The notes under the pieces: generated by a model | The model's input: the letters and a program-made list of their open reading frames with translations, nothing else | Told to the model about the DNA's origin: nothing | The model's database searches: none | Shown: positions 1-26,915 of the stretch, piece by piece | Numbering within the stretch: position 1 is the stretch's first letter | How the letters are laid out: each line of letters begins with the position of its first letter | Made by a program: the position numbers and the translations under genes | Source: a virus | Taxonomy: Duplodnaviria; Heunggongvirae; Uroviricota; Caudoviricetes | Reading direction: 5' to 3' (one strand) | Length of the DNA: 26,915 nucleotides | Virus record (IMG/VR): IMGVR_UViG_2541047885_000002 | Span: 1 to 26,915 of that record

Positions 1-92
1 CAGAAAAAGCTTATTATGCTTCCATCGGAAACGATGATCTGGCAGCCTGAGTTCACAGATAAAACACTCTCCAGGAAACCCGGGGCGGTTCA
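1..92 (+). mobile_element. Right-hand terminus of an IS3-family insertion sequence (last transposase codons plus terminal inverted repeat); the element body lies upstream of the window
   Basis: Frame 3 of nt 3-50 translates to [15 protein letters not shown]-stop, continuing the transposase C-terminus read on the minus strand at the other end of the window ([45 protein letters not shown]). Positions 1-92 are the exact reverse complement of 26699-26790. The terminus ends in CA, as in IS3-family ends. I recall this C-terminus as IS3 InsF-like but cannot confirm the exact IS name. Confidence 0.75.
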
Positions 93-1053
93 GTACATCG
101 GCACGGCATCCTACTTCGACCCTGAAGAACTATACAGCGCGCGAGAGTTTTACCATGACACTATCAACGCTTTCTACGGCAAGCAGCAGTATCTGTTTAA
201 TCCACCGTGGGAATCTCTGGCAGATAAATTCCAGTTCCGTGAGGCAGAGTTGACGCTGGTCAATGGTGTGAACGGTCACGGAAAAACGGAGGTTGTCGGG
301 CATATGGCACTTGAGGCAATGCGTCAGGGTGTGAAGACATGCATCGCGTCACTTGAGCTGAAGCCTGGTATTCTCCTTAAGCGCCTTACCCGTCAGGCGA
401 CGTGCTGCAAGATGCCGCCAGTGCTGGAAATTGACTCTGCATTTAAATTTTATGACGAAAGACTTTGGGTGTTTGGCCTGACCGGAACGGCGAAAGCCGA
501 CAGGCTGATCGAAATATTCGACTACGCTCGCCGCCGATACGGGATCCAGTTATTCATCATCGACAGCCTGATGAAATGTGGCATAGGCGACGATGACTAT
601 AACGGGCAGAAGGCTTTTGTTGACTCGATTTGCGACTTCAAAAACAAAACAAACTCCCACGTCATTCTCGTTACTCACTCGCGAAAAGGAGACAGCGAAG
701 AAAAACCAACCGGGAAAATGGACGTAAAAGGCTCTGGAGCGATAACAGACCTGACAGACAACCTTTTCATCATCTGGCGTAACAAGGCTCGCGATAGAGC
801 GTTACAGAGAGTTCAGAGTGGTGAAAAGATGTCAGAGAAGGACGAACAGCTACTGGCATCTCCGGCATCTGTTTTGATGCTTGAAAAACAACGTAACGGC
901 GAAGGTTGGGAAGGTGGTGTCCCGTTGTTCCTTGACGAGCAATCGCACCAGTTCCTGCAACTTGAATCAGGATCGCCATATAGCTACATCGCCAATATGC
1001 CGAAATCGGAATATGACGAGGCGTGGAGACAGGAAAACGTGACGGAGTATTAA
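16..1053 (+). pseudogene. 3' portion of a DnaB-family replicative helicase gene (P22 gene 12 position), 5'-truncated by the IS insertion; the first 25 codons of the ORF derive from the IS end
   Basis: The ORF is open to the window start. From nt 93 on the protein shows a Walker A-like NGVNGHGKTE, a Walker B-like LFIIDSLMKCG and the RecA-fold layout of DnaB-type helicase C-terminal domains. It sits immediately upstream of the nin region. The identity break at nt 92/93 marks the IS junction. Confidence 0.7.
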
Positions 1054-1082
1054 ATGACCATCTACATCACTGAGCTAATAAC

Positions 1083-1114
1083 AGGCCTGCTGGTAATCGC
1101 AGGCCTTTTTATTT
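1083..1114 (+). terminator. Intrinsic terminator after the helicase gene
   Basis: Stem AGGCCTGC (1083-1090), loop TGGTAATC, stem GCAGGCCT (1099-1106), followed by TTTTATTT. Confidence 0.7.
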
Positions 1115-1129
1115 GGGGGAGGGGGAAGT

Positions 1130-1456
1130 GTGGCTGACTGGCAAATTCCAATCATCATTCTTGCCGGAGCGTCGCTGATTGCTGGCTTTATCCTGCTGAA
1201 AAAGCATAAAGACCGTGATCAAAAAGTCGAAGTTCTCTATGGGTATCCAGCGAACAGCACAACATGGCTGACCATTTACCACTACCGAAAATCAGGCCGC
1301 TGGGTATTCGAATGGGATGATCTGTTTGCTGAAAAGCGACCAAAGTCATGGGGAGACATCAGCGAATGCATGATGTTTGAAGAAAGAAAATCCGGCGCAA
1401 CCCGAGAAGAGTTTAACGAAGCGTGGGCGCGATTAAGTGATAGAGGGTATTTGTGA
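1130..1456 (+). CDS. Hypothetical small membrane protein (one N-terminal TM helix)
   Basis: GTG start preceded by the strong SD GGGGGAGGGGGAA. N-terminal hydrophobic stretch IPIIILAGASLIAGFILL. Function unknown. Confidence 0.55.
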   Translation: MADWQIPIIILAGASLIAGFILLKKHKDRDQKVEVLYGYPANSTTWLTIYHYRKSGRWVFEWDDLFAEKRPKSWGDISECMMFEERKSGATREEFNEAWARLSDRGYL

Positions 1457-1650
1457 GCAAGTACGAAAAATTAGATCAAAACATTCTTTCAATGCTGAGT
1501 GAAAGACCAACACCTGTTTTTGATATCTGGCTTAAATGGCGGAGCAATGGAATGTATATCGAAACCATCGATCGCCGTATGCAATACCTGAGAAAGAAAG
1601 GGCTTGTTGCAAATGTGCGTGGGAAGGGTTGGGTGAAAATTAACCTGTAA
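1453..1650 (+). CDS. Hypothetical protein
   Basis: GTG start overlapping the upstream stop (GTGA), SD GAGGGTA 5 nt upstream. 65 aa, basic C-terminus. No family recognised. Confidence 0.45.
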   Translation: MSKYEKLDQNILSMLSERPTPVFDIWLKWRSNGMYIETIDRRMQYLRKKGLVANVRGKGWVKINL

Positions 1651-1664
1651 TAACGGGGGTTGAT

Positions 1665-1985
1665 ATGGACGAATCAAGAAAGCAGTTTGAAGAAAGTTGG
1701 TTGCGACGTGGGGGCGAATCTTCAGACCTTATCCGTTACCCTGAAAATCACCATGAAATTGGCAGCGGTAATATTGGTGGTCAATACGTGATGGACGATG
1801 TTCAAGGCCACTGGCAAACGTGGCAGGCATCGCGATCAGCTATTGAAATAACCGCGCCAAAGTTTATCGACAGCAGAGAAGCATTAGCCAAAGGGTTTAC
1901 TGTTGATTATTCCAATGGCTTCGGTGATGCAATGGATGCTTATGAGGAAAACATCCGCGCTGCTGGAGTCAAAGTGAAGGAGTAA
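1665..1985 (+). CDS. Hypothetical phage protein (pre-nin position)
   Basis: ATG with GGGGG SD; 106 aa; tightly packed in the operon. No family recognised. Confidence 0.55.
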   Translation: MDESRKQFEESWLRRGGESSDLIRYPENHHEIGSGNIGGQYVMDDVQGHWQTWQASRSAIEITAPKFIDSREALAKGFTVDYSNGFGDAMDAYEENIRAAGVKVKE

Positions 1986-1987
1986 CG

Positions 1988-2398
1988 ATGAAGCAAACAA
2001 TCTTCCTCCGTGGTAAACAACAACAGCAAGCCGCAATCAACGCCATCCTCGCAACACCACTCGATAAAGAAAAGCCAGTTACCATCCGCATTACTGACTA
2101 CAAGCGCAATCTTGACCAGAACGCAAAATTTCACGCGATGCTGGCGGATATCGCTCGTCAGGTTCAATGGTGCGGCAAATGGTTAAAACCAGAACAATGG
2201 AAGGTTTTGTTGATCAGCGGTCATGCAGTGGCAACAAAACAGGAAGCTGATGTTTTGCCCGGGCTTGAAGGCGAATACGTCAACATTCGCGAAAGCAGCG
2301 CGCAGATGAGTGTGAAGCGTATGGCAAGTCTTATCGAGTACACAACAGCCTGGGCTATTGGTCATGGTGTCAGATTTACCGACAGGAGGTACGAATGA
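1988..2398 (+). CDS. ninB: NinB (Orf-family recombination mediator)
   Basis: Translation shares the motifs I recall from lambda NinB (LDQN.K, Q..W.G.WL, similar length); sits at the head of a nin cluster. Confidence 0.9.
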
Positions 2399-2571
2399 GA
2401 CGACAGCGACGAAGTATCACCGACATCATCTGCGAAAACTGCAAATACCTTCCAACGAAACGCTCCAGAAATAAACGCAAGCCAATCCCAAAAGAATCTG
2501 ACGTAAAAACCTTCAACTACACGGCTCACCTGTGGGATATCCGGTGGCTTAGAGAACGTGCGAGGAAATGA
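2395..2571 (+). CDS. ninE: NinE
   Basis: 58-aa ORF absent from the supplied track (under 60 aa): [58 protein letters not shown], essentially the lambda NinE sequence as I recall it. ATGA overlap with the ninB stop. Confidence 0.85.
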
Positions 2572-2573
2572 CA

Positions 2574-2933
2574 ATGGATTATTCACAGTTAAGTGATTTT
2601 GAAATTAACGTGGCGGTATTCGAAGCCATTCATAACGGATCACCGGATTACAAAGAAGGTGAGAATGGCGATATGGTGTTTGTCTCATTTGAGGGAGACA
2701 TTGTAAACGGAGACGCAGTTGAAGTAGAAGTTGAGCGCGGTTCCTTTAACCCATGCGCAAACCCAGCAGACGCATGGCCGATTATTGAAAAATACAGGAT
2801 TAGCATTATCAATCTCGATGAAGACGAGTGGGGTGCACGCGGTGTGGCCTACTGTAAATCTAAGCGAGCTATACATGAAAATCCCCTCCGCGCCGCCATG
2901 ATTGTCTTTCTCATGATGCAGAGAATCCAATAA
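2574..2933 (+). CDS. Hypothetical protein in the NinX position (possibly NinX/DUF2591-like)
   Basis: ATG at 2574 is 6 nt after SD GAGGAA; the ATG at 2568 abuts the SD and is less likely. Starts MDYSQLSDFEIN. Lies between ninE and ninF, where P22-like phages carry ninX. Family assignment is from memory only. Confidence 0.55.
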   Translation: MDYSQLSDFEINVAVFEAIHNGSPDYKEGENGDMVFVSFEGDIVNGDAVEVEVERGSFNPCANPADAWPIIEKYRISIINLDEDEWGARGVAYCKSKRAIHENPLRAAMIVFLMMQRIQ

Positions 2934-3109
2934 TGCTTAGCCCATCCCAATCCCTTCAATACCAGAAAGAAAGCGTCGAGCGAGCTTTAACGTGCGCTAA
3001 CTGCGGTCAGAAGCTGCATGTGCTGGAAGTTCATGTATGTGAAGCGTGCTGCGCAGAACTGATGAGCGATCCGAATAGCTCGATGCACGAGGAAGAAGAC
3101 GATGGCTAA
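2933..3109 (+). CDS. ninF: NinF
   Basis: 58-aa ORF absent from the track: [58 protein letters not shown], matching lambda NinF as I recall it; Cys-rich. Confidence 0.85.
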
Positions 3110-3713
3110 ACCAGCGCGAAGACGATGTAAAAACGATGAATGTCGGGAATGGTTTCACCCTGCATTCGCCAATCAGTGGTGGTGCTCTCCAGAGTGTGGA
3201 ACCAAGATAGCACTCGAACGACGAAGCAAAGAACGCGAAAAAGCGGAAAAGGCAGCAGAGAAGAAACGACGACGAGAGGAGCAGAAACAGAAAGATAAAC
3301 TTAAGATTCGAAAACTCGCCTTAAAGCCCCGCAGTTACTGGATTAAACAAGCCCAACAAGCCGTAAACGCCTTCATCAGAGAAAGAGACCGCGACTTACC
3401 ATGTATCTCGTGCGGAACGCTCACGTCTGCTCAGTGGGATGCCGGACATTACCGGACAACTGCTGCGGCACCTCAACTCCGATTTGATGAACGCAATATT
3501 CACAAGCAATGCGTGGTGTGCAACCAGCACAAAAGCGGAAATCTCGTTCCGTATCGCGTCGAACTGATTAGCCGCATCGGGCAGGAAGCAGTAGATGAAA
3601 TCGAATCAAACCATAACCGCCATCGCTGGACTGTCGAAGAGTGCAGGGCCATCAAGGCAGAGTACCAACAGAAACTCAAAGACCTGCGAAATAGCAGAAG
3701 CGAGGCCGCATGA
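3102..3713 (+). CDS. ninG: NinG (Rap-type recombination endonuclease)
   Basis: 203 aa beginning [33 protein letters not shown], near-identical to lambda NinG as I recall it. Confidence 0.93.
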
Positions 3714-3916
3714 CGTTCTCAGTAAAAACCATTCCAGACATGCTCGTTGAAGCATACGGAAACCAGACAGAAGTAGCACGCAGACTGAAATGTAGTCGCG
3801 GTACGGTCAGAAAATACGTTGATGATAAAGACGGGAAAATGCACGCCATCGTCAACGACGTTCTCATGGTTCATCGCGGATGGAGTGAAAGAGATGCGCT
3901 ATTACGAAAGAATTGA
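3710..3916 (+). CDS. ninH: NinH
   Basis: 68 aa [39 protein letters not shown]..., matching lambda NinH; ATGA overlap with the ninG stop. Confidence 0.93.
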
Positions 3917-4565
3917 TGGCAGCAAATACCGAAATATTTGGGTAGTTGGCGATCTGCACGGATGCTACACGAACCTGATGAAAAAACTGGAGACGATAGG
4001 ATTCGACACCAAAAAAGACCTGCTTATCTCGGTTGGCGATTTGGTCGATCGCGGTACAGAGAACGTCGAATGTCTGGAATTAATCACATTCCCCTGGTTC
4101 CGAGCTGTACGTGGAAACCATGAGCAAATGATGATTGATGGCTTATCAGAGCGTGGAAACGTCAATCACTGGATGCTTAATGGCGGTGGCTGGTTCTTTA
4201 ATCTCGATTACGACAAAGAAATTCTGGCTAAAGCTCTTGCCCATAAAGCAGATGAACTTCCGTTAATCATCGAACTGGTGAGCAAAGATAAAAAATATGT
4301 CATCTGCCACGCCGATTATCCTTGTGACGAATACGAGTTTGGAAAGCCAGTTGATCATCAGCAGGTAATCTGGAACCGCGAACGAATCAGCAACTCACAA
4401 GACGGGATCGTAAAAGAAATCAAAGGAGCGGACACGTTCATCTTTGGTCATACGCCAGCAGTGAAACCACTCAAATTTGCCAACCAGATGTATATCGATA
4501 CCGGCGCAGTGTTCTGCGGAAACCTCACATTGATTCAGGTACAGGGAGAAGGCGCGTGGGCATAA
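3894..4565 (+). CDS. ninI: NinI, Ser/Thr protein phosphatase (lambda-PPase, metallophosphoesterase)
   Basis: Starts [28 protein letters not shown] with the GDLHG, GDLVDRG and GNHE metallophosphatase motifs; SD GGAG upstream of ATG 3894. The track's longer ORF from 3819 is rejected as an upstream in-frame extension. Confidence 0.93.
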
Positions 4566-5074
4566 GAGAACTAAACCTCACCAAAGAACAGCATGAGTGG
4601 CTGAATGGCTGGCTTGAACTGTGGGGCGCATGGGTTTATTCAGGTCGTCTGGAAAAGCGCATGAGCAGCGTAATAGCGAAGTTCATGGAGAGCGTAGAGC
4701 CGGGAAGAGTTATGACAAGGCCAATGTGCAATGATGATGATGGAATGTTGATTTCTCAGGTCGTCGATTCCGTCATGTACATTGACAAAAAAGCCTTTGG
4801 CATCCTCCTCAGCTACTACGCTCATGGTTCATCTAAGCGAGCAATTGCATCCTACTATCACGCGACTGCAAAGCCACGCAAGATGTGTGGACGTGGTGGC
4901 GAGGGATGGAGAAAACCTTCACTGGCAACCTGTAGAAACGAAATTGACGACATCCTGAAAGCGTCATTATTTGTTTTATACCAGCCAATGCAAAATGCTT
5001 TCAAAATGCGTAAACGTGTTGAGAAAGTTAAGCATGTTGCTGTTAAAAGCCTTGACATGCAATTAGCCATTTAG
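4556..5074 (+). CDS. Q: Late antiterminator Q (phage 21/933W-type, not lambda-type)
   Basis: Position directly after ninI and directly before a promoter-terminator pair. N-terminal LELWGAW resembles the LERWGAW motif I recall from Q of 933W/H-19B. Start taken as GTG 4556 after GGGAGAAGG; the exact start is uncertain. Confidence 0.7.
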
Positions 5075-5081
5075 CCATAAT
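5052..5081 (+). promoter_or_regulatory. Candidate late promoter PR' (sigma70), overlapping the 3' end of Q
   Basis: TTGACA (5052-5057), 18-bp spacer, CATAAT (5076-5081). Location matches PR' of lambdoid phages, where the qut site overlaps the promoter. Confidence 0.6.
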
Positions 5082-5122
5082 ATTCACATATGCTGCTGCT
5101 TTTGCATTCAGCAACCATCACA

Positions 5123-5146
5123 AGCCCACCTCCTGTGGGCTTTTTT
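5123..5146 (+). terminator. Intrinsic terminator, candidate tR' (target of Q antitermination)
   Basis: Stem GCCCAC (5124-5129), loop CTCCT, stem GTGGGC (5135-5140), then TTTTTT; about 60 nt downstream of the predicted PR' start. Confidence 0.75.
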
Positions 5147-5268
5147 GCATTCGCGTGCAATCAAAACAAGAGTCTTAGTGATATGGGCCTGAGATATGGT
5201 GGTGGAAACATCGCTCCGCTCTTGGCTGTCATATCTACGCGAACAGGCTCTATCCCTAAGGTAAAGCG

Positions 5269-5781
5269 ATGAAAGAAATAAAATTAACGCCAGAAATGGT
5301 GCTTTCTGTTGTTGATTACAATCCATCATCAGGCGACTTTCACTGGAGATGGAGGCAGGGGAGAGAGAGGACCACTTTGACATGGAACTCTCGTTTTGCT
5401 TTCAAGAAATGCTCATCAATAAATTCTGATGGGTATTTAATGATTATGATTAATGGTAAAGCATGCCCTGCTCACAGACTGGCATGGTTGATTGTTTATG
5501 GCACCATGCCCGATGGTTTTATTGATCACATCAACAGGGTAAGAACAGATAACCGGATATCAAATCTTCGTCTTGTCACTCATTCCGAAAATATGCAAAA
5601 CAGGAAAATTCAGAAGAATAATAAATCTGGATACCGTGGCGTGTCTTGGGATGCTAAGTACGGGAAATGGAGAGCAAGAATTAATGCGTCTGGAAAGTGT
5701 ATTAACCTTGGATACCATGACACTGCCGAACTTGCCGCTGCGGCTTTTGAGGCAGCCAGAATGAAATATCATACCGTTTAA
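5269..5781 (+). CDS. HNH endonuclease with C-terminal AP2-type DNA-binding domain (moron)
   Basis: HNH core ...AHRLAWLIVYGTMPDGFIDHINRVRTDNRISNLRLVTHSENMQN... and AP2-like SGYRGVSWDAKYGKWRARINASGKCINLGYHDTAELAAAAFEAA. SD AAGGTAA upstream. Confidence 0.8.
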   Translation: MKEIKLTPEMVLSVVDYNPSSGDFHWRWRQGRERTTLTWNSRFAFKKCSSINSDGYLMIMINGKACPAHRLAWLIVYGTMPDGFIDHINRVRTDNRISNLRLVTHSENMQNRKIQKNNKSGYRGVSWDAKYGKWRARINASGKCINLGYHDTAELAAAAFEAARMKYHTV

Positions 5782-5787
5782 AGATGT

Positions 5788-5832
5788 AAGCTGCCGTTAG
5801 TGACTCTTAAGTTGCAACGGTGGCTTTTTTTA
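5788..5832 (+). terminator. Putative intrinsic terminator after the HNH gene
   Basis: AAGCTGCCGTT (5788-5798) pairs with AACGGTGGCTT (5816-5826) including two G-U pairs, 17-nt loop, then a T7 run. The large loop lowers confidence. Confidence 0.45.
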
Positions 5833-6080
5833 TTTGCACAACAGGTAAGAGCATTGAGTCGATAATCGTGAAGAGTCGGCGCGCCTGGTTAGCCAGTGCT
5901 CTTTCCGTTGTGCTGAATTAAGCGAATACCGGAAGCAGAACCGGATCACCAAATGCGTACAGGCGTCATCGCCGCCCAGCAACAGCACAACCCAAACTGA
6001 GCCGTAGCCACTGGCTATCCTGAATTCATCAGTGATAGTTACGCTGCGGCCTTCTACACATGACCTTCGTGAAAGCGGGT

Positions 6081-6115
6081 GGCAAGAGGTTGCGCTAACA
6101 ACCTCCTGCCGTTTT
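6081..6115 (+). terminator. Strong hairpin plus U-tract in the late leader (candidate terminator or RNA structure)
   Basis: GGCAAGAGGTTG (6081-6092), loop CGCTAA, CAACCTCCTGCC (6099-6110) giving 11 of 12 pairs, followed by GTTTT. Confidence 0.5.
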
Positions 6116-6215
6116 GCCCGTGCATATCGGTCACGAACAAATCTGATTACTAAACACAGTAGCCTGGATTTGTTCTATCAGTAATCGACCTTATTCCTAA
6201 TTAAATAGAGCAAAT

Positions 6216-6231
6216 CCCCTCAATGAAGGGG
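6216..6231 (+). promoter_or_regulatory. Hairpin sequestering the holin Shine-Dalgarno sequence (sdi-like)
   Basis: CCCCT (6216-6220) pairs with AGGGG (6227-6231), loop CAATGA; the 3' arm is the holin SD, 6 nt before ATG 6238. Confidence 0.5.
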
Positions 6232-6237
6232 TAGAGC

Positions 6238-6441
6238 ATGTACCGTATGGACAAAATCAGAGAATGGTTCAGTTACAGCTTCGGAGGACTGACTGCGATG
6301 GGTGGCATTCTCTCCCTGAATGACTGGGCTGTCATCATTGGTATTCTTTGTACTGTCGGCACATTTGGCATCAACTGGTACTACAAGCGCAAAGAGCGCG
6401 AGGACAGATTGAATGGCAATGTCACCGGCACTACGAAATAG
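6238..6441 (+). CDS. Holin, phage-21 S-like class II pinholin with dual-start motif
   Basis: 67 aa, two TM segments (Gly-rich [17 protein letters not shown] and [19 protein letters not shown]), charged C-terminus, N-terminus MYRMDKI paralleling S21 MKSMDKI. Immediately upstream of the endolysin. Confidence 0.8.
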
Positions 6442-6916
6442 CGTAATAGCGGCGATAAGTGGCGGGGCTATTGCTATAGCATCTGTGTTAATCACTGGAC
6501 CAAGTGGTAACGATGGCCTGGAAGGTGTCAGCTACATACCATACAAAGATATTGTTGGTGTATGGACTGTATGTTACGGGCATACAGGAAAAGACATCAT
6601 TCCCAGTAAAACGTATACCGAAGCAGAATGCAAAGCCCTCCTGAATAAAGACCTTGCCACGGTCGCCAGACAAATTAACCCGTACATCAAAGTCGATATA
6701 CCGGAAACAACGCGCGGCGCTCTTTACTCGTTCGTCTACAACGTGGGGGCTGGCAATTTCAGAACATCGACGCTTCTTCGCAAAATAAACCAGGGCGATA
6801 TCAAAGGCGCATGTGACCAGCTACGTCGCTGGACATACGCTGGCGGTAAGCAATGGAAAGGGCTGATGACCCGTCGTGATATTGAGCGTGAAGTCTGTTT
6901 GTGGGGGCAGCAATGA
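6413..6916 (+). CDS. SAR endolysin (T4-lysozyme-like, phage 21 R-type)
   Basis: N-terminal Gly/Ala-rich signal-anchor-release segment ([17 protein letters not shown]) followed by the lysozyme core [25 protein letters not shown]; near-identical to R21 as I recall it. Confidence 0.9.
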
Positions 6917-7350
6917 GCAGGGTAACCGCGATTATCTCCGCTCTGGTTATCTGCATCATCGTCTGCCTGTCATGGGCTGTTAATCATTACCGTGATAACG
7001 CCATTACCTACAAAGAGCAGCGCGATAAAGCCACATCCATCATCGCTGATATGCAGAAGCGTCAACGTGATGTAGCAGAACTCGACGCCAGATACACAAA
7101 GGAGCTTGCTGATGCTAACGCGACTATCGAAAGCCTCCGTGCTGATGTTTCTGCTGGCCGTAAGCGCCTGCAAGTCGCCGCCACCTGTGCAAAGTCAACG
7201 ACCGGAGCCAGCAGCATGGGCGATGGAGAAAGCCCAAGACTTACAGCAGATGCTGAACTCAATTATTACCGCCTCCGAAGTGGAATCGACAAGATAACCG
7301 CGCAGGTTAACTACCTGCAGGAATACATCAGGACGCAATGCCTGAAATAA
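6913..7350 (+). CDS. Rz: Rz (i-spanin)
   Basis: [34 protein letters not shown]... matches the lambda Rz N-terminus; ATGA overlap with the endolysin stop. Confidence 0.9.
7112..7297 (+). CDS. Rz1: Rz1 (o-spanin lipoprotein) embedded in the +1 frame of Rz
   Basis: [36 protein letters not shown]: lipobox LAVSAC followed by a Pro-rich segment; SD AAAGGAG 7 nt upstream; lies wholly inside Rz. Confidence 0.75.
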
Positions 7351-7411
7351 TTTTTTTGCAAATCACAAAGTCAATTTAATGAGTCTCGCGATGCGGGGCT
7401 TTTTGCAATAA

Positions 7412-7436
7412 ATGCGTACCGCAACGCATGTTTTTT
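7412..7436 (+). terminator. Intrinsic terminator downstream of the lysis cassette
   Basis: ATGCGT (7412-7417), loop ACCGCA, ACGCAT (7424-7429), then G plus TTTTTT. Confidence 0.65.
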
Positions 7437-7551
7437 ACACCGAACCTGCCCCTTTGGAATGGGCCTTTGAGGATACCAGTTAGTGCTGGCGAGCCTCGGT
7501 GGGCTGGTTTCCTATGCGGCAAAGGTTCATTTCAAATGGTAGGTAAACGTT

Positions 7552-8073
7552 ATGAATATCGTGCCACTTAATTACAAAGGTGAAATTGTCAGTTTCAACA
7601 CTGATGGTTGGATCAACGTCACAGGTGTTGCTGAGAGATTTGGAAAACGCATTGATAACTGGATGCGTTTGGCAGAAACGCTTGAATACGTTCGTGCTTT
7701 AGACGAAGCGTTGACCGGGAAAGAATCTCAAATTTTACATCCCTCACAATCGAGGTATGTAAAAACCAGCAAGGCACGAAAGGACAGGGGTGGTGGTACG
7801 TGGCTACATCCAAAACTTTCAGTTGCATTTGCCCGTTGGTGTGATGCTCGTTTTGCTGTGTGGTGCGACCTGCACATTGATAGTCTGCTTCGCGGTGAAC
7901 TGACTGAGCAGCAGAAATATGAGCAAGCATGTCGCATTCGCGATGACCGGAAATCAAAAGCCAGCAATGGGGCAAGAGAGATGGCTCGCTGGCGATGGGA
8001 TAAGCCGGTTATTGAAGCAAATGTTGAGTACTGGCGCGAGCAACTGCAGTTGACTCTCGATATCGCGTGCTGA
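7552..8073 (+). CDS. KilA-N domain protein
   Basis: Core GTWLHPKLSVAFARWCDARFAVWC fits the KilA-N/APSES-type motif as I recall it; 173 aa. Confidence 0.6.
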   Translation: MNIVPLNYKGEIVSFNTDGWINVTGVAERFGKRIDNWMRLAETLEYVRALDEALTGKESQILHPSQSRYVKTSKARKDRGGGTWLHPKLSVAFARWCDARFAVWCDLHIDSLLRGELTEQQKYEQACRIRDDRKSKASNGAREMARWRWDKPVIEANVEYWREQLQLTLDIAC

Positions 8074-8430
8074 TGGCAAACGCAAAACTGCGTTATCGGA
8101 AAAATCAAAGCATTACGAGAACTGAGCAACGGCTATCCATTACAAAGCCCATCTACGGGTGGGCTTGATAATGAAACCGGAATTTATTCTGGGTAACCAG
8201 TTACGGCAGTACAGCGAAACAACCCAAGCCAGTAAGAGGGGAAATAACACTGGCAGCCACTGAAAGATGAAGCTCCTGCCTTAAGGCAAAAAAGATTCTT
8301 TGTGGTGGCGGACTGATGGAAAGACATCGGTTATTGCAGAGGCCATTCAATGAGTGGTCTCGACAATGGCTTATACCCTACACGGGATAACTTAACTGAT
8401 ATCCCTTTTAACGGATAAACGGAGCCAACA

Positions 8431-8673
8431 ATGGCAGAGATTATTCCCATGACTGAAGAACAGAAATTCCAGTTAGAGATTTACAAACTGGTCATGAACC
8501 AGAACGCAGCCGCAGAAGAAGCATTTCAATTCATTGGCACTGACGAGCTGAAGCTTGAGCTATTCAAAATTCACTTCCAGTCAGGCGGCGCTAATTCAGA
8601 TATCACGACCCGCACTATCGAAGCGGTGCGTAAATCGAAGGAAGCGTTAGACCTGTTCACCACCGGAGCATGA
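8431..8673 (+). CDS. Hypothetical protein
   Basis: ATG preceded by SD GGAG; 80 aa, acidic. No family recognised. Confidence 0.5.
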   Translation: MAEIIPMTEEQKFQLEIYKLVMNQNAAAEEAFQFIGTDELKLELFKIHFQSGGANSDITTRTIEAVRKSKEALDLFTTGA

Positions 8674-8674
8674 T

Positions 8675-8854
8675 GTGAGCCGCGCAATCAATTTGGGTAA
8701 GGAGAAGAAATTCCCAATTACTCAAGAGCTATACGAGAGGCTGGAAAGCGTCATCCATGATTACGATGGTGAAATCAGTTTATGCGAGGCGATTGGCACA
8801 CTCGAATTGCTGAAGCAGTCACTGATTGAAGGCGCGAAAGAGTCCTCAACCTGA
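8675..8854 (+). CDS. Hypothetical small protein (59 aa, not in track)
   Basis: GTG start 7 nt after SD CCGGAG, abutting the upstream stop; translation VSRAINLGKEKKFPITQELYERLESVIHDYDGEISLCEAIGTLELLKQSLIEGAKESST; followed by a terminator. Confidence 0.4.
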   Translation: MSRAINLGKEKKFPITQELYERLESVIHDYDGEISLCEAIGTLELLKQSLIEGAKESST

Positions 8855-8879
8855 AATGACAATTAAGTGAGATGAATAT

Positions 8880-8906
8880 GGCAGCACTCAACATGCTGCC
8901 TTTTAT
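8880..8906 (+). terminator. Intrinsic terminator between convergent genes
   Basis: GGCAGCA (8880-8886), loop CTCAACA, TGCTGCC (8894-8900), then TTTTAT. Confidence 0.65.
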
Positions 8907-8917
8907 CGTTGATTAGT

Positions 8918-9157
8918 TTAACCGCGAGCTTCACGACCGTTTTCGTCTTCAGGCACACGGAAACGCCAGTACTTATCTGGCTTAACCCAAACAACACTTT
9001 CACCGCTATCAACCCTGAATTTATTAATCACTTTTGTTGATAGCGCTTGGTTGCCATCCGCATTTTCTTTGAGGTGCTGCTCGTTATGTTGTTTAACGAG
9101 ATAATCCACAACATCCTGCTGATAAAGGCAACCCTCTGTTGATAAAACGGACATCAT
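8918..9157 (-). CDS. Hypothetical protein (minus-strand moron)
   Basis: 79-aa ORF antisense to the late operon, downstream of and co-oriented with the DUF2158-like gene. Start (9157 or 9154) uncertain, no strong SD. Confidence 0.5.
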   Translation of the reverse strand: MMSVLSTEGCLYQQDVVDYLVKQHNEQHLKENADGNQALSTKVINKFRVDSGESVVWVKPDKYWRFRVPEDENGREARG

Positions 9158-9201
9158 CCATGATGAAATATCATCAAGAGTTAAGGTTGGTGTGTTTGGG
9201 A

Positions 9202-9384
9202 CTATGGCTTTGGGGTAACGCGCTCAAGAGATTCCGGTTTGAAATATCCTTGCTCAAGCTTCTTGCCAGCAAACCATTGACAAAGAAAAGAGTTACCGTG
9301 GGTAGATGAAAATGACCTGATAGTCATGTCAGGTCCGCCTGATTTCAGTTTAACAATGTCACCTGTTTTAAAGTCATCGTTCAT
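9202..9384 (-). CDS. Small YodC/DUF2158-like protein (minus-strand moron)
   Basis: 60 aa MNDDFKTGDIVKLKSGGPDMTI..., recalled as the KSGGP-motif DUF2158 family; SD GGAG 6 nt upstream of ATG at 9384. The track's longer ORF from 9417 is rejected. Confidence 0.6.
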   Translation of the reverse strand: MNDDFKTGDIVKLKSGGPDMTIRSFSSTHGNSFLCQWFAGKKLEQGYFKPESLERVTPKP

Positions 9385-9410
9385 AACAATCTCCTTATGG
9401 GAAGTAAAAA

Positions 9411-9938
9411 ATGGCACTCACCGACAAACAAGAAATGTTCTGTCGCGAGTACCTCATCGATTTAAATGCCACGCAAGCGGCTATTCGGGCGGGGTACAGC
9501 GCAAAGACAGCTAACCGTACCGCATCCGAAAACCTGTCAAAACCTGATATCAAGTTAAGAATCTCCGAACTGAAAGCGCAACGCAATGATCTTGTTGGTA
9601 TTAATGCAGAATATGTACTTAATCGCCTTATTGAAATCGACCAGATGGATGTGCTCGACATTCTCCTGCAAAACGGCGAGTTAAAGCCAATTAAAGACTG
9701 GCCTAAGGTATGGCGCACAACGCTATCAGGAATGGATGTCGTGGAGATGGTATCCGCAGATAGCGCCGCACTTCTGAAGAAAATCAAATGGCCTGATAAG
9801 GTTAAAAACCTCGAACTTCTTGGTAAGCATGTTTCTGTTCAGGCGTTTAAAGAACAAGCTTCTCACGAATTAACAGGCAAAGACGGCGGCGCAATCCAGA
9901 TTGAAACATCACCGATGAGCACTCTATTCGGAAAATGA
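9411..9938 (+). CDS. terS: Terminase small subunit (Terminase_2 family)
   Basis: N-terminus MALTDKQEMFCREYLIDLNATQAAIRAGYSAKTA is the Terminase_2 signature; directly upstream of and overlapping terL. Confidence 0.85.
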   Translation: MALTDKQEMFCREYLIDLNATQAAIRAGYSAKTANRTASENLSKPDIKLRISELKAQRNDLVGINAEYVLNRLIEIDQMDVLDILLQNGELKPIKDWPKVWRTTLSGMDVVEMVSADSAALLKKIKWPDKVKNLELLGKHVSVQAFKEQASHELTGKDGGAIQIETSPMSTLFGK

Positions 9939-11350
9939 CCTCGATTAATCCTATCTTTGAACCGTTCATTGAGGCGCATCGCTACAAAGTCGCCAAAGGC
10001 GGTCGAGGTAGCGGTAAGTCATGGGCAATTGCGAGGCTTCTTGTTGAAGCGGTGCGTCGGCAGCCTGTGCGTATTCTTTGCGCTCGTGAGCTGCAAAACA
10101 GTATCAGCGATTCGGTAATCAGGTTGCTTGAAGACACCATCGAGCGTGAAGGGTATTCGGCTGAGTTTGAAATTCAGCGTTCAATGATTCGTCATCTCGG
10201 AACGAATGCTGAATTCATGTTCTACGGCATCAAAAACAACCCGACGAAGATTAAATCGCTCGAAGGCATTGATATCTGCTGGGTGGAAGAAGCGGAAGCG
10301 GTAACAAAGGAATCGTGGGATATCCTGATACCAACCATCCGCAAGCCGTTTTCCGAAATATGGGTGAGCTTTAACCCGAAGAACATCCTCGACGATACCT
10401 ATCAGCGATTCGTCGTAAATCCTCCTGATGATATTTGTCTGCTGACGGTGAACTACACCGACAACCCGCACTTTCCTGAAGTTCTCCGTCTGGAGATGGA
10501 AGAGTGTAAACGCAGAAATCCGACACTGTATCGTCACATCTGGCTTGGTGAGCCAGTAAGCGCAAGTGATATGGCAATCATCAAACGTGAATGGCTTGAA
10601 GCCGCAACCGATGCGCACAAGAAACTCGGATGGAAAGCGAAAGGCGCGGTTGTCTCTGCGCATGACCCGTCAGATACAGGGCCAGATGCTAAAGGTTACG
10701 CATCGCGTCACGGTTCGGTGGTTAAGCGCATTGCCGAAGGCCTGCTGATGGACATCAACGAGGGTGCTGACTGGGCTACTTCGCTGGCGATTGAAGACGG
10801 CGCTGACCACTACCTGTGGGATGGCGATGGTGTCGGTGCCGGGCTACGCAGACAGACAACGGAAGCGTTCTCCGGTAAGAAAATCACCGCCACGATGTTC
10901 AAGGGCAGCGAATCGCCATTCGATGAAGATGCGCCTTATCAGGCCGGGGCATGGGCTGATGAAGTCGTGCAGGGCGACAACGTTCGCACTATTGGCGATG
11001 TGTTCCGCAATAAGCGAGCGCAATTCTATTACGCGCTGGCTGACAGGCTGTATCTGACATATCGGGCGGTTGTTTACGGTGAGTATGCAGACCCCGACGA
11101 CATGCTGAGTTTCGACAAAGAAGCGATAGGCGAGAAGATGCTGGAGAAGCTGTTTGCAGAACTGACGCAGATTCAGCGCAAATTCAATAACAACGGGAAG
11201 CTGGAGCTTATGACCAAGGTCGAAATGAAGCAGAAGCTCGGTATTCCATCTCCTAACCTGGCTGATGCGCTGATGATGTGTATGCATTGCCCGGAGTCGG
11301 CTGCGAAACCCGACTATTCCAGTTACTCAATTCCTTGTGGTGTAGGTTGA
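9935..11350 (+). CDS. terL: Terminase large subunit
   Basis: Walker A KGGRGSGKS near the N-terminus, acidic nuclease-domain residues, 471 aa, ATGA overlap with terS. Confidence 0.9.
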   Translation: MTSINPIFEPFIEAHRYKVAKGGRGSGKSWAIARLLVEAVRRQPVRILCARELQNSISDSVIRLLEDTIEREGYSAEFEIQRSMIRHLGTNAEFMFYGIKNNPTKIKSLEGIDICWVEEAEAVTKESWDILIPTIRKPFSEIWVSFNPKNILDDTYQRFVVNPPDDICLLTVNYTDNPHFPEVLRLEMEECKRRNPTLYRHIWLGEPVSASDMAIIKREWLEAATDAHKKLGWKAKGAVVSAHDPSDTGPDAKGYASRHGSVVKRIAEGLLMDINEGADWATSLAIEDGADHYLWDGDGVGAGLRRQTTEAFSGKKITATMFKGSESPFDEDAPYQAGAWADEVVQGDNVRTIGDVFRNKRAQFYYALADRLYLTYRAVVYGEYADPDDMLSFDKEAIGEKMLEKLFAELTQIQRKFNNNGKLELMTKVEMKQKLGIPSPNLADALMMCMHCPESAAKPDYSSYSIPCGVG

Positions 11351-11351
11351 T

Positions 11352-13550
11352 ATGGCAGAAAAAAAGATGACTGACTGGCATCGCAAGGTGCTGTGCAACT
11401 TTGATAATGCCTGGTCAGCAACGCAGGATATGCGTGAGCAGATTATTGAGGCTCAACGTTTCGTCCGGGTATCCGGCGCACAGTGGGAAGGCAGCACAAA
11501 CGCTGGTTACTCATTTGATGAAGGCAGGTTTGAGCATTACCCGCGCTTTGAACTGAATAAGATTGCCCGTGAATGTGATCGCATCATTGGCGAGTATCGA
11601 CAGAATCGCATCAGCGTTAAATTCAGGCCGAAGGACGATAAGGCATCGGAAGCGTTAGCCGAAAAGATGAACGGCAAATTCCGCGCTGACTATCAGGAAA
11701 CATCCGGTGGCGAAGCGTGTGATAACGCATTTGATGATGCTGTAACGGGCGGATTCGGTTGTTTCCGCATGTGTGCCGATTACGAAGATGAAATGGATCC
11801 GAGTAACGATCAGCGACGCATCAGTCTTCTTCCTGTTTACGACCCAGCGACATGCGTCTTCTTCGATCAGGACAGCAAGCAATATGACCGATCTGATGCT
11901 ATGTGGGCTATGGAAATGTTTTCCATGACGCCTAAAGCGTTCGAGGCTGAATACCCTGATTCCATCGCGGCAAGCCTTTCTCGTGATAACACTGGTACTC
12001 AGTATGACTGGTCAACGCCTGATGCCATCTATGTTGGACGCTACTACGAAGTTCGCGTAGAGAAGGTGAAGCTCACAGCATGGCGTAACCCTGTTAGCGG
12101 AGAAACGGCAATCTATGATGAAGATCAAATCAAAGATATTGTCGACGAGCTGACCGATGGCGCATTCGAACTGATTGGTGAGCGGACAGTGAAGAAACGC
12201 CGAGTTTATTGCGGTCTTCTGTCTGGCGCTGAATGGCTGGAAGAACCGAAGCGTATTCCGGGCGAACATATTCCTCTCATCCCGGTATATGGGCGTCGTT
12301 CATTTGTTGATAATCAGGAGCGAATCGAAGGCCACGCAGCAAAAGCGATGGATGCACAGCGTCTTGAGAACCTGATGGTTTCCATGATTGCAGATAACGC
12401 TACTCAGGCTGGCGGCGATGGCATTCCTGTAGTTGATGTTGACATGATTCCTGGTCCTCTTGCCACTCATTGGGCGGAGCGCAACAAAAAGCGCCCGGCG
12501 TTCCTGCCGATGGTCAGTCTGAAAAACAAAAACGGAGATATTACTGCGCAGGCTCAGGTCAGCAGTTATACACCTCCGACACAAATGCCTCCTGCTCTTG
12601 CCGGGCTATTGCAGTACACCGGAACGGCTATTCAGCAAATTACAGGTGCGTCGCAGCTTGAGAATATGCCGAGCAACGTCGCTACCGATACCGTTGATAG
12701 CATCTTTAACCGGATGGACACGCAGTCCTATATCTACATGGACAACATGGCTAAATCCATGCGCCGCGCTGGCGTCGTGTGGCTTTCTATGGCGCGTGAA
12801 GTCTATGGCAGCGATACGCCGATGCGTATCGTTAATGAGGACGGCAGCGATGACGTGGCGCTGATGACTGGTGAAGTGGTTGACCGTCAGACAGGGCAGG
12901 TTATCGCTCTTAACGACCTTTCGCAGGGTAACTATGAAGTGACTGTCGATGTTGGTCAGTCGTTCGCTACTCGCCGTGATGCAACGGTTAAGTCGTTACT
13001 TTCCATGCTGGCACTTATCCCACCGGGAACGCAGAAGCACGACCTTGTATCGTCGATGATTCTCGACAATATGGACGGCGAAGGGATGGACGACCTTAAA
13101 GAATACAACCGCAATCAGTTGCTTCTGTCTGGCGTTATCAAGCCGAGAACGCCTGAAGAACAGCAGATGGTTGAACAGGCGAAACAACAACAGGCCAGTC
13201 AGCCAGATCCGGCTATGGTTGCAGCGCAAGGTCAGCTTCTTGCAGGTCAGGCTGAATTGCAGAAAGCGCAGAACGAACAGGCAGCCATTCAGGTTAAAGC
13301 ATTCCAGGCACAGACTGATGCTCAGGTTGCAGCGGCAAACGTTGTGAAAATCCTCGCATCTGCCGATAGCCAGCAGAAATCTGATATCCGCGAGGCTCTG
13401 AAACTGCTCGGACAGTTCCAGCAACAGCAAGGAGACAATGCCCGTGCTGATGCAGAGCTTGTCCTGAAAAGTCAGGCACAGGGTCATGCGCAGCGAATGG
13501 ACATCAGCAGCATCCTGCAAAAATCAACCCAGCAACAATCACAGCAGTAA
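11352..13550 (+). CDS. Portal protein (P22 gp1-like)
   Basis: 732 aa with GEHIPLIPVYG and a long Gln-rich C-terminal helical region (PDPAMVAAQGQLLAGQAELQKAQNEQ...QRMDISSILQ) matching what I recall of the P22 gp1 barrel. Confidence 0.93.
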   Translation: MAEKKMTDWHRKVLCNFDNAWSATQDMREQIIEAQRFVRVSGAQWEGSTNAGYSFDEGRFEHYPRFELNKIARECDRIIGEYRQNRISVKFRPKDDKASEALAEKMNGKFRADYQETSGGEACDNAFDDAVTGGFGCFRMCADYEDEMDPSNDQRRISLLPVYDPATCVFFDQDSKQYDRSDAMWAMEMFSMTPKAFEAEYPDSIAASLSRDNTGTQYDWSTPDAIYVGRYYEVRVEKVKLTAWRNPVSGETAIYDEDQIKDIVDELTDGAFELIGERTVKKRRVYCGLLSGAEWLEEPKRIPGEHIPLIPVYGRRSFVDNQERIEGHAAKAMDAQRLENLMVSMIADNATQAGGDGIPVVDVDMIPGPLATHWAERNKKRPAFLPMVSLKNKNGDITAQAQVSSYTPPTQMPPALAGLLQYTGTAIQQITGASQLENMPSNVATDTVDSIFNRMDTQSYIYMDNMAKSMRRAGVVWLSMAREVYGSDTPMRIVNEDGSDDVALMTGEVVDRQTGQVIALNDLSQGNYEVTVDVGQSFATRRDATVKSLLSMLALIPPGTQKHDLVSSMILDNMDGEGMDDLKEYNRNQLLLSGVIKPRTPEEQQMVEQAKQQQASQPDPAMVAAQGQLLAGQAELQKAQNEQAAIQVKAFQAQTDAQVAAANVVKILASADSQQKSDIREALKLLGQFQQQQGDNARADAELVLKSQAQGHAQRMDISSILQKSTQQQSQQ

Positions 13551-13640
13551 TTAACCAATAACGTGCAATGGCTGTCTTTATGAGGCCTGGCACCCTATTG
13601 CCTTCCGATGGGCTGAACATCGAGTAAACAGGGGTAACAA

Positions 13641-14537
13641 ATGGACCAGATGGCAGAAAACACACCAGAAGTTGAAATAGAAACCGATACATCAGAGCAG
13701 ATTCCTGATGATGTCGAACTGGCTGAAGAAGTCGAAACAGAAGATGGCAGTGAGTCCTCCGGCAATGATGCAGAGGAAGCTACTGAAACTGATGACGACG
13801 AATCAGAACAGGAATTCTACTTTGGTGACGAAAAGCTGGATTCGCCAACCAGCGAAGATGGCGCTGAGCATGGACTGGTAAAACACCTGCGCAAGACGAT
13901 TAAAGAGAAAGACCGCGAGCTGAAAGAGCTGATGCGTCAGTCCCAGAAACCCGTCGAGCAGCAGCCGGTAATCACTCAACCACCGCGAATGCCAAAACTG
14001 GATGATGAGGACATCGGTTTCGATGAAGAAATCTACCAGCAACGCATGGCTAAGTGGGCGGAGGACAACGGCAAATACCAGGAGCAAGTACGAGAGCGGA
14101 AACGAGAGGAAGAGGCGCGTACCGCAACGCTTCAGCAGAAAGCAGCCAATTACATGCATAGAGTAAAAGCACTGAAAGTGGCTGGTTACCAGGATGCAGA
14201 GCAGGCTGTACGCGAAGATGTTCCTGTTCACATTCAGGACATGATCCTTCTTGAGTCAGAGAAGCCGGAAATCGTTGTTCTGGCACTCGGTCGCAACGCT
14301 GAACTGCGCAAGCAACTGGCAGAAGCTACCAACCCCGTAGCAATTGGTCGTCTGCTGGAACGTATCGAATCGAAGGCCAGAATCATGCCAAAAGCAAAAA
14401 CCACGGCAGCCACAACCCCGACAGTTAAGGGGAGCAACGGCGCAGTAATCAATAACCTCGACAAACTTCTCGAAAAAGCGCGCGACACCGGTGATTACAC
14501 CGAATACCGGGCGGCGAAGAACAAAGCTAAAAAATAA
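13641..14537 (+). CDS. Scaffolding protein (P22 gp8-like)
   Basis: Position between portal and coat; highly acidic N-terminus, coiled-coil middle, basic helix-turn-helix-like C-terminus (DTGDYTEYRAAKNKAKK); SD AGGGG. Confidence 0.8.
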   Translation: MDQMAENTPEVEIETDTSEQIPDDVELAEEVETEDGSESSGNDAEEATETDDDESEQEFYFGDEKLDSPTSEDGAEHGLVKHLRKTIKEKDRELKELMRQSQKPVEQQPVITQPPRMPKLDDEDIGFDEEIYQQRMAKWAEDNGKYQEQVRERKREEEARTATLQQKAANYMHRVKALKVAGYQDAEQAVREDVPVHIQDMILLESEKPEIVVLALGRNAELRKQLAEATNPVAIGRLLERIESKARIMPKAKTTAATTPTVKGSNGAVINNLDKLLEKARDTGDYTEYRAAKNKAKK

Positions 14538-14557
14538 TCCATCGGAGCTAAATACCT

Positions 14558-15817
14558 ATGTCTAACCAGTTAACAAAAGACCTCGAAATCCTCTTTGAGA
14601 GCGTCATTGATAGTTTTGAGGCGTCCAATGTCGTTTCCCGCGAGTGCAGCAAGTTCCGACCGGGCGACATTGAAATGCAGCGCGCTGGCGACGTTGTTTA
14701 TCGCCCTCAGGGCTACCACCTGAAAACCGTGAGCGGACTTGATCTGACTTCGGCCACTGCAAACTCACTCGTTCAGCGTCAGGTGCCTGCTCGCTTCCGC
14801 GAGCCAGAGAACGTCATCTACGAACTGGACGCAAAAGAAATGCGCGATCCGTGGCACAAAGAGCAGGCTGGCAAGGCGGCGGGTCGCCAGTTGGCGGCGT
14901 GGGTTGATAACATGATCGTCGATGAGGTGGTCGCTCGCTCCACCAACGTGGTCACCATTAAATCGGCGTCCACCGGTAGCACTCTCGGCGAAGAACTCTG
15001 GAACGCATCGGCTGACGTTGATGCAATGATGCTGTCCATTGGTGTGCCTCAGGGTGGTCAGCGCAAGGCGTTCTACAACCCGTTCAACTACAAAGACCTG
15101 GCTAAGGAGCTTGGCTCTCGCGCATATGCGGTCGGTGCAACTCTGACAGCCTATGAGAAAGCTCAGATTCCACCTGTGGCATCCTTCGACAGTTTCCGCG
15201 TTGATTATGCTGGCGCAATGAAGGCTGGTTCAGCTACCGCTGTAACTCTCGGCGGCGCAGTAAAACACAAAGTTACCGCGATGGATTCCAACGGCGCGCC
15301 TACCGATAACCGCCAGGGTGACATCACCGTATCCACTGCTGGCGTACTGGCTGTCGGCGATGCATTCACTATCGCAGGCGTTAACAGTGTCCACATGATC
15401 AAGAAGGTGGATACAGGTAAGCCGCAGGTATTCCGCGTCCTGGCAGTAAATGGCACTACCGTTACCATCAGCCCGAAAATTCTGCCACCAGACAACGCGG
15501 ATAAGGCGTCTATTCCTTACCAGAACGTTACCGCCAATCCGGTGGCAAACGCGGCGATCACCATCCTCAACAAGAAGGCTGCGGCTTCCAACATCTTCTT
15601 CGCTGAGGGTTCTGTTGAGCTGATGTATGGCAAGTTGGCATTCCCTACCGGCCAGGGTCCGCAGGTTATGACCGCAACGACCGAGCAGGGTGCGACCATC
15701 ATCATGGCTTACCAATTCGACGCTAAATCTGGCAAAACGTGGACTCGCTTCACCACGCTGGCTGGCGCAAGCGTACTGGTCCCGGAATTCACCGGCCTGG
15801 TACTGGCTAACCAGTAA
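14558..15817 (+). CDS. Major capsid (coat) protein
   Basis: 419 aa directly after the scaffold gene and followed by a strong terminator; assignment by synteny and size. Confidence 0.8.
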   Translation: MSNQLTKDLEILFESVIDSFEASNVVSRECSKFRPGDIEMQRAGDVVYRPQGYHLKTVSGLDLTSATANSLVQRQVPARFREPENVIYELDAKEMRDPWHKEQAGKAAGRQLAAWVDNMIVDEVVARSTNVVTIKSASTGSTLGEELWNASADVDAMMLSIGVPQGGQRKAFYNPFNYKDLAKELGSRAYAVGATLTAYEKAQIPPVASFDSFRVDYAGAMKAGSATAVTLGGAVKHKVTAMDSNGAPTDNRQGDITVSTAGVLAVGDAFTIAGVNSVHMIKKVDTGKPQVFRVLAVNGTTVTISPKILPPDNADKASIPYQNVTANPVANAAITILNKKAAASNIFFAEGSVELMYGKLAFPTGQGPQVMTATTEQGATIIMAYQFDAKSGKTWTRFTTLAGASVLVPEFTGLVLANQ

Positions 15818-25979: not shown

Positions 25980-26179
25980 GTAAAGAATGTTGTTTCTGCG
26001 GCATTAGCGAATCAGACGCTGATCAAACATACATTTACTCTAAAGAAACAGGTCGGATGCTGTGTAGTGACTGCGTGTTGGACATCATAAGATACAAGCA
26101 TCTTGGATGTTCTGCCAGCATTAGCAATATAGGTGAAGTATACGAAGGGAAAGATATAACTGATAGAGCAGAAAGTTGA
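25976..26179 (+). CDS. Small Cys-rich (zinc-ribbon-like) protein
   Basis: 67 aa with CCFCG ... CSDC; ATGA overlap with the arc-like stop; between arc and the antirepressor gene. Confidence 0.5.
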
Positions 26180-26241
26180 AGCCCCAACTGCTGGAACAGT
26201 CAGGGCTTCGGTATCAACAAATCGGCTTAGGAAATATTGAC

Positions 26242-26698
26242 ATGAAAAGTATAGCAAAGGCACAAAACGATTTCACCATCTTCAAATTTGGCGACAGTGA
26301 AATTCGCGTCATTAACAAGTGCGGCGAGCCGTGGTTTGTAGCTAAAGATGTTTGTGATGCTTTAGCTTTGACTAACTCACGCAAGGCGCTTACTGCACTT
26401 GATGACGATGAAAAGGGAGTAACTTTAAGTTACACCCTTGGTGGTGAGCAGAATCTAAGCATTGTGAGCGAATCAGGTATGTATACATTGGTTCTGCGCT
26501 GCCGCGATGCAGTCAATAAAGGTTCAGTCCCGCACAAATTCCGCAAGTGGGTAACAGCAGAAGTTCTGCCTTCAATTCGCAAACATGGCGAGTATGTAAA
26601 AGGAAAGAAAACCACTGTTGAGGAAAGAACACCGCTACGCGATGCAGTAAACATGCTGGTAGGAAAGAAAGGACTTCGCTATGACGATGCATACAATA
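26242..26698 (+). pseudogene. ant: Bro-N domain antirepressor (ant position), 3'-truncated by the IS insertion
   Basis: From ATG 26242: [60 protein letters not shown]...[14 protein letters not shown]...[17 protein letters not shown] is a typical Bro-N domain. The ORF runs into IS sequence at 26699. Confidence 0.8.
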
Positions 26699-26915
26699 TG
26701 AACCGCCCCGGGTTTCCTGGAGAGTGTTTTATCTGTGAACTCAGGCTGCCAGATCATCGTTTCCGATGGAAGCATAATAAGCTTTTTCTGCTTCTGCCGG
26801 AGGAGTATGGCCCAGCCTTTCCAGCAATCGTCGATTGTTATACCAGTCCACCCACGTGAGTGTGGCCAGTTCCACTTCTGCACGGTTTTTCCAGCTCTTA
26901 CGGTGTATTACCTCC
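26699..26915 (-). mobile_element. Right-hand end of a second copy of the same IS3-family element, inverted relative to the copy at the window start; the transposase 3' end is read on the minus strand
   Basis: 26699-26790 is the exact reverse complement of 1-92. The minus strand of 26741-26915 encodes ...[45 protein letters not shown]-stop, an IS3-family OrfB C-terminus. The element continues beyond the window. Confidence 0.8.

Follow-up and report, generated by a model that had tools for sequence, protein, structure and literature searches.

The locus examined here raises the question of what kind of gene is represented by the open reading frame (ORF) that opens it, in which the codons of an insertion sequence (IS) run in frame into those of a phage helicase, and of whether the prophage carrying it could still replicate. 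The window, i.e., the whole stretch of 26,915 nt that was analysed, is a complete assembly contig of E. coli UMEA 3139-1, broken at either end inside a copy of the IS629 repeat. The fusion ORF lies at its left edge, at 16..1053 on the plus strand, and codes for 345 aa, made up of 25 IS codons (16-90), a junction codon CAG (91-93), and codons 308-626 of a primase-helicase gene.

The fusion ORF and the IS/phage junction

The last base of IS629 is base 92, as given by identity to the annotated 3' end of the element; codons 1-25 of the ORF are therefore entirely IS sequence, and codon 26, the CAG at 91-93, straddles the junction between the IS and the gene. From this codon onward, the product is 95% identical, over its full length and in frame, to residues 307-626 of 626-aa phage proteins. 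The first-pass annotation had described an ORF that begins within the IS terminus and passes after 25 IS codons in frame into the helicase gene, and both its coordinates and its translation were confirmed, together with the recurrence of the same 25-residue IS peptide in the minus-strand ORF 26635..26883 at the other end of the window. The latter is a spurious ORF, given that it follows an alternative frame of the second IS629 copy, exits into antisense ant, and stops after 23 non-IS codons. Frame analysis placed the fusion ORF in frame 1 and the transposase gene orfB in frame 3; the 3' end of orfB occupies 3..50 on the plus strand and closes with a TGA at 48-50, as seen from its translation and from the OrfB annotation of the reference element in LC567824.

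That the ORF starts at position 16 is due in part to where the window begins: in the 217 nt of IS629 that are visible at the far end, the same frame remains open for 44 further codons and has a GTG 35 codons upstream of that start. Of the three frames that lead outward from the IS629 right end, a single one has start codons; any insertion in that phase produces an ORF of this sort, the in-frame fusion being a chance outcome of one in three. In GenBank, the gene is deposited as EQW96715.1/WP_021557664.1, a 350-aa product called from the gap edge, which explains why exact-protein look-ups returned no match for the ORF, whether taken as 345 aa or as 339 aa. Its deposited name, "AAA family ATPase, partial", also departs from the earlier expectation that an automated annotation would call an intact helicase here. 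In a search for the exact IS/helicase junction among 5,426 complete E. coli genomes, there was no match spanning bases 1-90 plus the gene, and the GTDB species representatives, scanned for the exact pattern, yielded 0 matches.

Two IS629 copies at the contig edges

The element was identified by comparison with the fully annotated 1310-bp IS629 copy in LC567824 (IS3 family, orfA/orfB, TG...CA), H72 holding only a partial IS copy. The right end (IRR) of the left copy covers 1..92 on the plus strand, with its inverted repeat ending in ...CCCGGGGCGGTTCA at base 92, and these bases are a perfect inverted copy of 26699-26790, which belong to the last 217 nt of the second IS629 (26699..26915, minus strand), an inverted copy whose right end faces inward; the remainder of each copy lies in an assembly gap. 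The visible IS ends differ from the annotated IS629 at 0/92, 0/217, 2/219, and 1/93 positions, the 2/219 belonging to the 5' end of the left copy, which begins at position 7653 of the KE701649.1 locus (L007), and the terminal inverted repeats start with TGAACCGCCCCGGG and end in ...CA, as those of IS629 do. The coding sequence that can be seen comprises the 5' end of orfA (L007 7707-7871, HTH_Tnp_1) and the 3' end of orfB (window 3-50), the interiors being runs of N.

Window positions 1-11456 correspond to L007 8872-20327 (GCA_000460275.1, KE701649.1) with 0 mismatches, directly after a gap of 1000 N, and in KE701649.1 both window edges, 1 and 26915, abut such runs (1000 and 1200 N, respectively). 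The left copy measures 1311 nt between its IS ends, including the 1000 N, against the 1310 nt of IS629, and the right copy, with its 1200 N, comes to 1510 nt against the same real length; the gap sizes in the scaffold are therefore estimates only. Because the IS interiors are runs of N, it is from the scaffolding of the depositors together with the matching target duplications, rather than from contiguous sequence, that the two gene halves are taken to be adjacent.

These duplications were found at both copies as direct repeats of the 3-4 bp expected for IS629, the reference element in LC567824 being itself annotated with a 4-bp duplication, CCAG. The left copy is flanked by GTAC (4 bp), at 93..96 on the plus strand and, as its partner ahead of the IS left end, at L007 7649-7652, and the second copy by ATA (3 bp, 26696..26698, plus strand), with an empty site that is intact in 3 related loci. 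The empty site left by precise excision of the left IS629 reads AGGATGAAATCTGGCAGTACATCGGCACGG, and removal of the IS with one copy of GTAC yields a 36-mer that was found intact in 7 related loci. Given the GTAC on both sides and these 7 intact homologous sites, the left IS629 arrived by simple transposition and not through a deletion.

Two identical IS ends that flank the window in inverted orientation, with interiors that are gaps so that the orientation of the segment depends on scaffolding, might also suggest that the 26.6 kb between them were inverted by IS-IS recombination or are mobile as a composite unit. However, the duplications in the scaffold differ between the two copies and match on the two sides of each (GTAC/GTAC and ATA/ATA), removal of either IS restores an intact gene, and the gene order from int to tailspike is canonical for lambdoid/P22 phages. 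We consider an inversion or a composite transposon very improbable and rejected it on account of the matching duplications and the two restored genes; the fusion ORF would in any event be unchanged by an inversion because its junction sits inside the contig.

The interrupted primase-helicase gene

The portion of the gene that remains in the window, 93..1053 on the plus strand (320 codons, residues 307-626), is 96-98.5% identical in DNA to genes of phages Sf101, mEp043, APC_JM3.2, and others, which are annotated as "bifunctional DNA primase/helicase" or "toprim domain-containing protein". The intact gene has 1881 nt and codes for 626 aa, and its 90%-identity protein cluster counts 5632 members, most of those among the members listed having 626 aa and the name "bifunctional DNA primase/helicase". 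In a full-length homologue with 95% identity, Pfam places Toprim_2 at 209-296 and AAA_25/DnaB_C at 355-594, and phmmer matches the protein to T7 gp4 (E 5e-23), to Twinkle (6e-14), and to the T7 primase fragment 1nui (2e-13). By the same method, the helicase half matches Twinkle at 2e-10 and T7 gp4 at 3e-5, and it contains the set of motifs that characterises the SF4 RecA-type helicases (Walker A, Walker B, H3, and H4), namely Walker A GHGKT (residues 87-91 of the ORF), IID (181), THSRK (220), and KGSGAI (238). The Toprim domain, present on the same polypeptide in the intact orthologues, is absent from ORF 16-1053 and sits in a separate ORF of 308 aa, and because of this the locus is a disrupted member of the T7 gp4/Twinkle-like family and not an intact one.

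With T7 gp4 and Twinkle, the gene shares the succession of Toprim primase, linker, and SF4 RecA-type helicase with motifs H1-H4, and it resembles them both in sequence and in fold; the retained fragment corresponds to about residues 252-566 of T7 gp4, and the helicase fragment that was crystallised (1e0j) comprises nearly the same residues, 241-566. It differs from them in that identity reaches only ~16-22%, in its lambdoid context beside an O-like initiator gene (PF04492), and in being physically split by an IS. The direct orthologues are the genes of Sf101 (gp45), mEp043, and epsilon34, with 82-98% DNA identity over 93-1053, a length of 626 aa, and the same neighbours; unlike the prophage gene, these are intact.

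This family assignment replaces the one proposed in the first-pass annotation, according to which the gene was a truncated P22 gp12/DnaB-type helicase deprived of its DnaB N-terminal domain. That reading draws on a weak match to Pfam DnaB_C (26.4 bits, slightly short of the 27-bit cut-off) and on the gene order, since the lambdoid slot of the gene is the one occupied by DnaB-type genes in related mosaic prophages (L005, L010, and L012), whose products also share the helicase superfamily fold. Nevertheless, the DnaB-type protein from the same slot of a related prophage shows no significant similarity to the ORF (BLASTP E = 0.31), the full-length homologues, of 626 aa, carry Toprim_2 at the place where P22 gp12-type proteins have the DnaB N-terminal domain, PF00772 being found neither in the fragment nor in the full-length orthologue, and the top matches in sequence as well as in fold are T7 gp4 and Twinkle. 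We thus rejected the DnaB/P22 gp12 identity, to which we now give hardly any credence.

The break falls between the two domains, 10 residues past the Toprim match and 48 residues ahead of the helicase match. Residue 307, the first one after it, aligns with about residue 252 of T7 gp4 (phmmer alignment; offset from the Walker A residue K318). The linker of T7 gp4 reportedly comprises residues 246-271 (Guo et al. 1999), which would place the break within it. T7 helicase fragments comparable to the retained piece (241-566) reportedly still form hexamers. T7 gp4 requires the linker to make active hexamers, and a role in initial DNA binding and in loading has been proposed for its primase domain (PMC9198812).

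Residues 307-626 were modelled in AlphaFold2 from an input of 40 homologues; the model reached a mean pLDDT of 87.9 and shows a helix at model residues 17-29, ahead of the helicase core. Its best PDB matches by Foldseek were Twinkle helicase chains (probability 1.00, TM 0.82 normalised to the target), and against T7 gp4 241-566 (1e0j) it gave a TM of 0.70-0.73 with 305-311 aligned columns over a target of 287-288 residues; for Twinkle and T7 gp4 alike, the superposition extends over the entire helicase-domain chain. Because the break is in the inter-domain linker, the helicase domain is complete within 93-1053, together with most of the linker, and what the ORF lacks is the whole Toprim primase half, residues 1-306. 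The helicase domain set, taken at first sight to be incomplete, is thus present, as indicated by the span of the Pfam and phmmer matches, the motifs, the model, and the Foldseek alignments. The earlier claim that an N-terminal domain is missing stands as far as ORF 16-1053 is concerned, but the domain was not lost from the prophage: across the IS in KE701649.1 there is a 308-aa Toprim ORF that consists of residues 1-306 plus QY, has ...EDEIWQY as its last residues, and takes its stop codon from the TGA at the start of the IS629 left end. This N-terminal half was deposited under the name "hypothetical protein".

A contig from another sequencing run (L032; SRR35601302, 1507 nt) ends exactly at the junction between primase and IS629 and encodes the same 308-aa product, and the UMEA 3139-1 scaffold contains no exact match to its first 200 nt; judging from this sequence, a second isolate may carry the same insertion allele. 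In other genomes, helicase-only homologues of 330-368 aa (L025, L026, L027, and L028) lie beside deletion scars, with cro or early-left genes directly adjoining the fragment and, in one case, with a 110-aa Toprim remnant, and the primase half of this gene appears to have been lost repeatedly in decaying prophages.

Expression, replication and the prophage

Most probably, and with good confidence on our part, IS629 split the only replicative helicase gene of the prophage at its linker, leaving the helicase half in the "fusion" ORF and the prophage likely deficient in replication. In this reading, IS629 transposed, in the orientation of the gene, into the inter-domain linker of the primase-helicase, duplicating GTAC. 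The upstream product is the 308-aa primase-only ORF, which keeps the native expression signals, and the downstream piece, residues 307-626, retains a complete helicase domain without its promoter-proximal context and ribosome-binding site. The phase of the insertion happened to meet the open outward frame of IS629 with its ATGs, and ORF finders consequently report a 345-aa "fusion". The helicase piece would then be made poorly or not at all and, if made, would be uncoupled from the primase, and the prophage would be unable to replicate autonomously unless the IS were excised.

The signals around the junction bear directly on this proposal. A consensus scan of the plus strand found no sigma-70-like outward promoter at the IS end or junction, either in window 1-1300 or within IS629, which does not bear out the earlier suggestion that an outward promoter of the IS might drive the fragment. 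The Shine-Dalgarno (SD) pairing of the IS-internal starts amounts to -1.9 kcal/mol at ATG16, -3.5 at ATG34, and -3.9 at the GTG farther upstream, as compared with -6.1 at the native start. Such weak sites do not exclude translation, however, because several genuine phage genes in the window score equally low (-1.9 to -3.9), and read-through transcripts that begin at pR, or at the promoter of the IS itself, could extend across the ORF. Downstream, a terminator-like GC hairpin followed by a T run was picked up at 1083..1106 (plus strand), 30 nt past the helicase stop, by consensus scan only. The strongest SD of the region, and the only strong one nearby, is AACGGAGG (-10.2 kcal/mol), ahead of an ATG at 304-306 (codon 97 of the ORF); this start lies just past the Walker A motif, a product initiated there would be devoid of the P-loop, and the same SD/ATG site is also found in the intact orthologues.

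As to other sources of a helicase, the gene and Pfam lists from int to tailspike contain no other helicase gene, and in this respect the first reading of the prophage, which had supposed no intact helicase gene elsewhere in it, holds. We infer that the prophage is likely replication-deficient because the SD sites are weak, there is no outward promoter, and no other helicase is encoded in the prophage. This conclusion is weakened by the equally weak SD sites of genuine genes, by the possible antiterminated read-through from pR, and by the two domains being intact, and a break placed in the linker could conceivably leave a two-piece enzyme that works.

The last point amounts to an explanation of its own, namely that the insertion turned one gene into a two-gene system of primase and helicase, with the helicase translated from an ATG within the IS (16 or 34) on read-through transcripts, assembling into hexamers by way of the linker that it has kept, and sustaining replication jointly with the free primase fragment. 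The position of the break, which leaves both halves as whole folded domains, is consistent with it; the ATGs lie 14 and 32 nt ahead of the orfB stop in an open frame, and termination-reinitiation is conceivable; an N-type antitermination system (N36 gene) in the prophage could take pR transcripts through the IS; and the contig from another run that ends at the same junction gives a hint of the allele persisting beyond a single isolate. Against this, neither an SD of native strength nor an outward promoter is present, and the primase domain of T7 is thought to contribute to loading (PMC9198812). Moreover, a search for a stable two-gene layout among the natural helicase-only homologues gave no support, since the 330-aa and 368-aa cases inspected lie in deleted prophage remnants and do not stand beside a separate primase gene. 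On balance, such a functional split seems unlikely, and somewhat less likely still is its most specific form, in which the IS629 right end serves as a portable translation start and thereby provides a stand-alone, hexamer-competent helicase with a 25-residue IS tag, besides a stand-alone primase, that together support replication. If true, an IS would here have split a bifunctional replication enzyme in nature without abolishing its capacity to support replication.

From left to right, the prophage comprises a lambda-type int, xis, early-left genes with RecT, N, cI, cro, cII, and the O-like initiator; then primase / IS629 / helicase, the nin genes, Q, HNH-AP2, lysis genes, and P22-type morphogenesis genes; and finally the immI region, ant / IS629 / ant, and an endosialidase tailspike, followed by host ybhB and bioA. 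The tailspike, encoded to the right of the window (12493-15438 of the right-hand locus, L023), is an endosialidase of 981 aa with End_N_terminal, End_beta_propel, End_tail_spike, and Peptidase_S74 domains. On the basis of this predicted endosialidase, the lambdoid/P22-like prophage is assigned as K1-capsule-specific and CUS-3-like.

The second IS629 splits the antirepressor gene ant into a Bro-N and a P22_AR_C part (window 26242-26915, L023 10001-12392). The N-terminal part, Bro-N, extends over 26242..26698 on the plus strand, and the ORF called from it runs to 26859 inside the IS and was deposited as a 205-aa "hypothetical protein" (EQW96755.1), so that this ant fusion also ends within the IS. 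The sar RNA, which in P22 is the antisense regulator of ant, is intact just upstream of the disrupted gene (26174-26240, minus strand), where the sequence matches Rfam RF00262 over its full length (69 bits, E 1e-12). This K1-type P22-like prophage therefore carries two IS629 lesions, one in a replication gene and the other in the antirepressor gene, and plausibly both of them lock the prophage in the chromosome.

IS629 is a frequent cause of prophage gene disruption in E. coli, and IS lesions of this sort are a well-documented path of prophage decay in that species. The closest precedents are the IS629 insertions in Stx phages of O157:H7, which involve the same element (99-100% end identity, 1310 bp, orfA/orfB, TG...CA), 3-4 bp target duplications, and an interrupted prophage gene, with notes such as "interrupted by IS629" in the records. 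The present case differs from them in that UMEA 3139-1, a clinical isolate, does not belong to O157 and its P22-like prophage is of the K1-endosialidase kind, and in that the target is the linker of a primase-helicase, with an insertion phase that gives an in-frame ORF. It is, then, an ordinary prophage-disrupting insertion and no new kind of gene, and the primase-helicase family is well characterised. Its value lies in an IS-generated fusion ORF that had been correctly spotted; corrected here are the family to which the gene belongs, the domain that the ORF lacks, and what became of the 5' half. It also calls for caution in annotation: what stands at a contig edge as an "AAA family ATPase" of 345-350 aa is the helicase half of an IS-split primase-helicase, and the apparent boundaries of the window are assembly breaks in the IS629 copies.

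Two mosaic accessory genes, both of them also present in related prophages, were noted in the remainder of the window: an HNH/AP2 endonuclease-like gene at 5269-5781, between Q and the lysis genes, and a ClpP-like protease gene at 24928-25464 on the minus strand, in the immI region beside mnt/arc.
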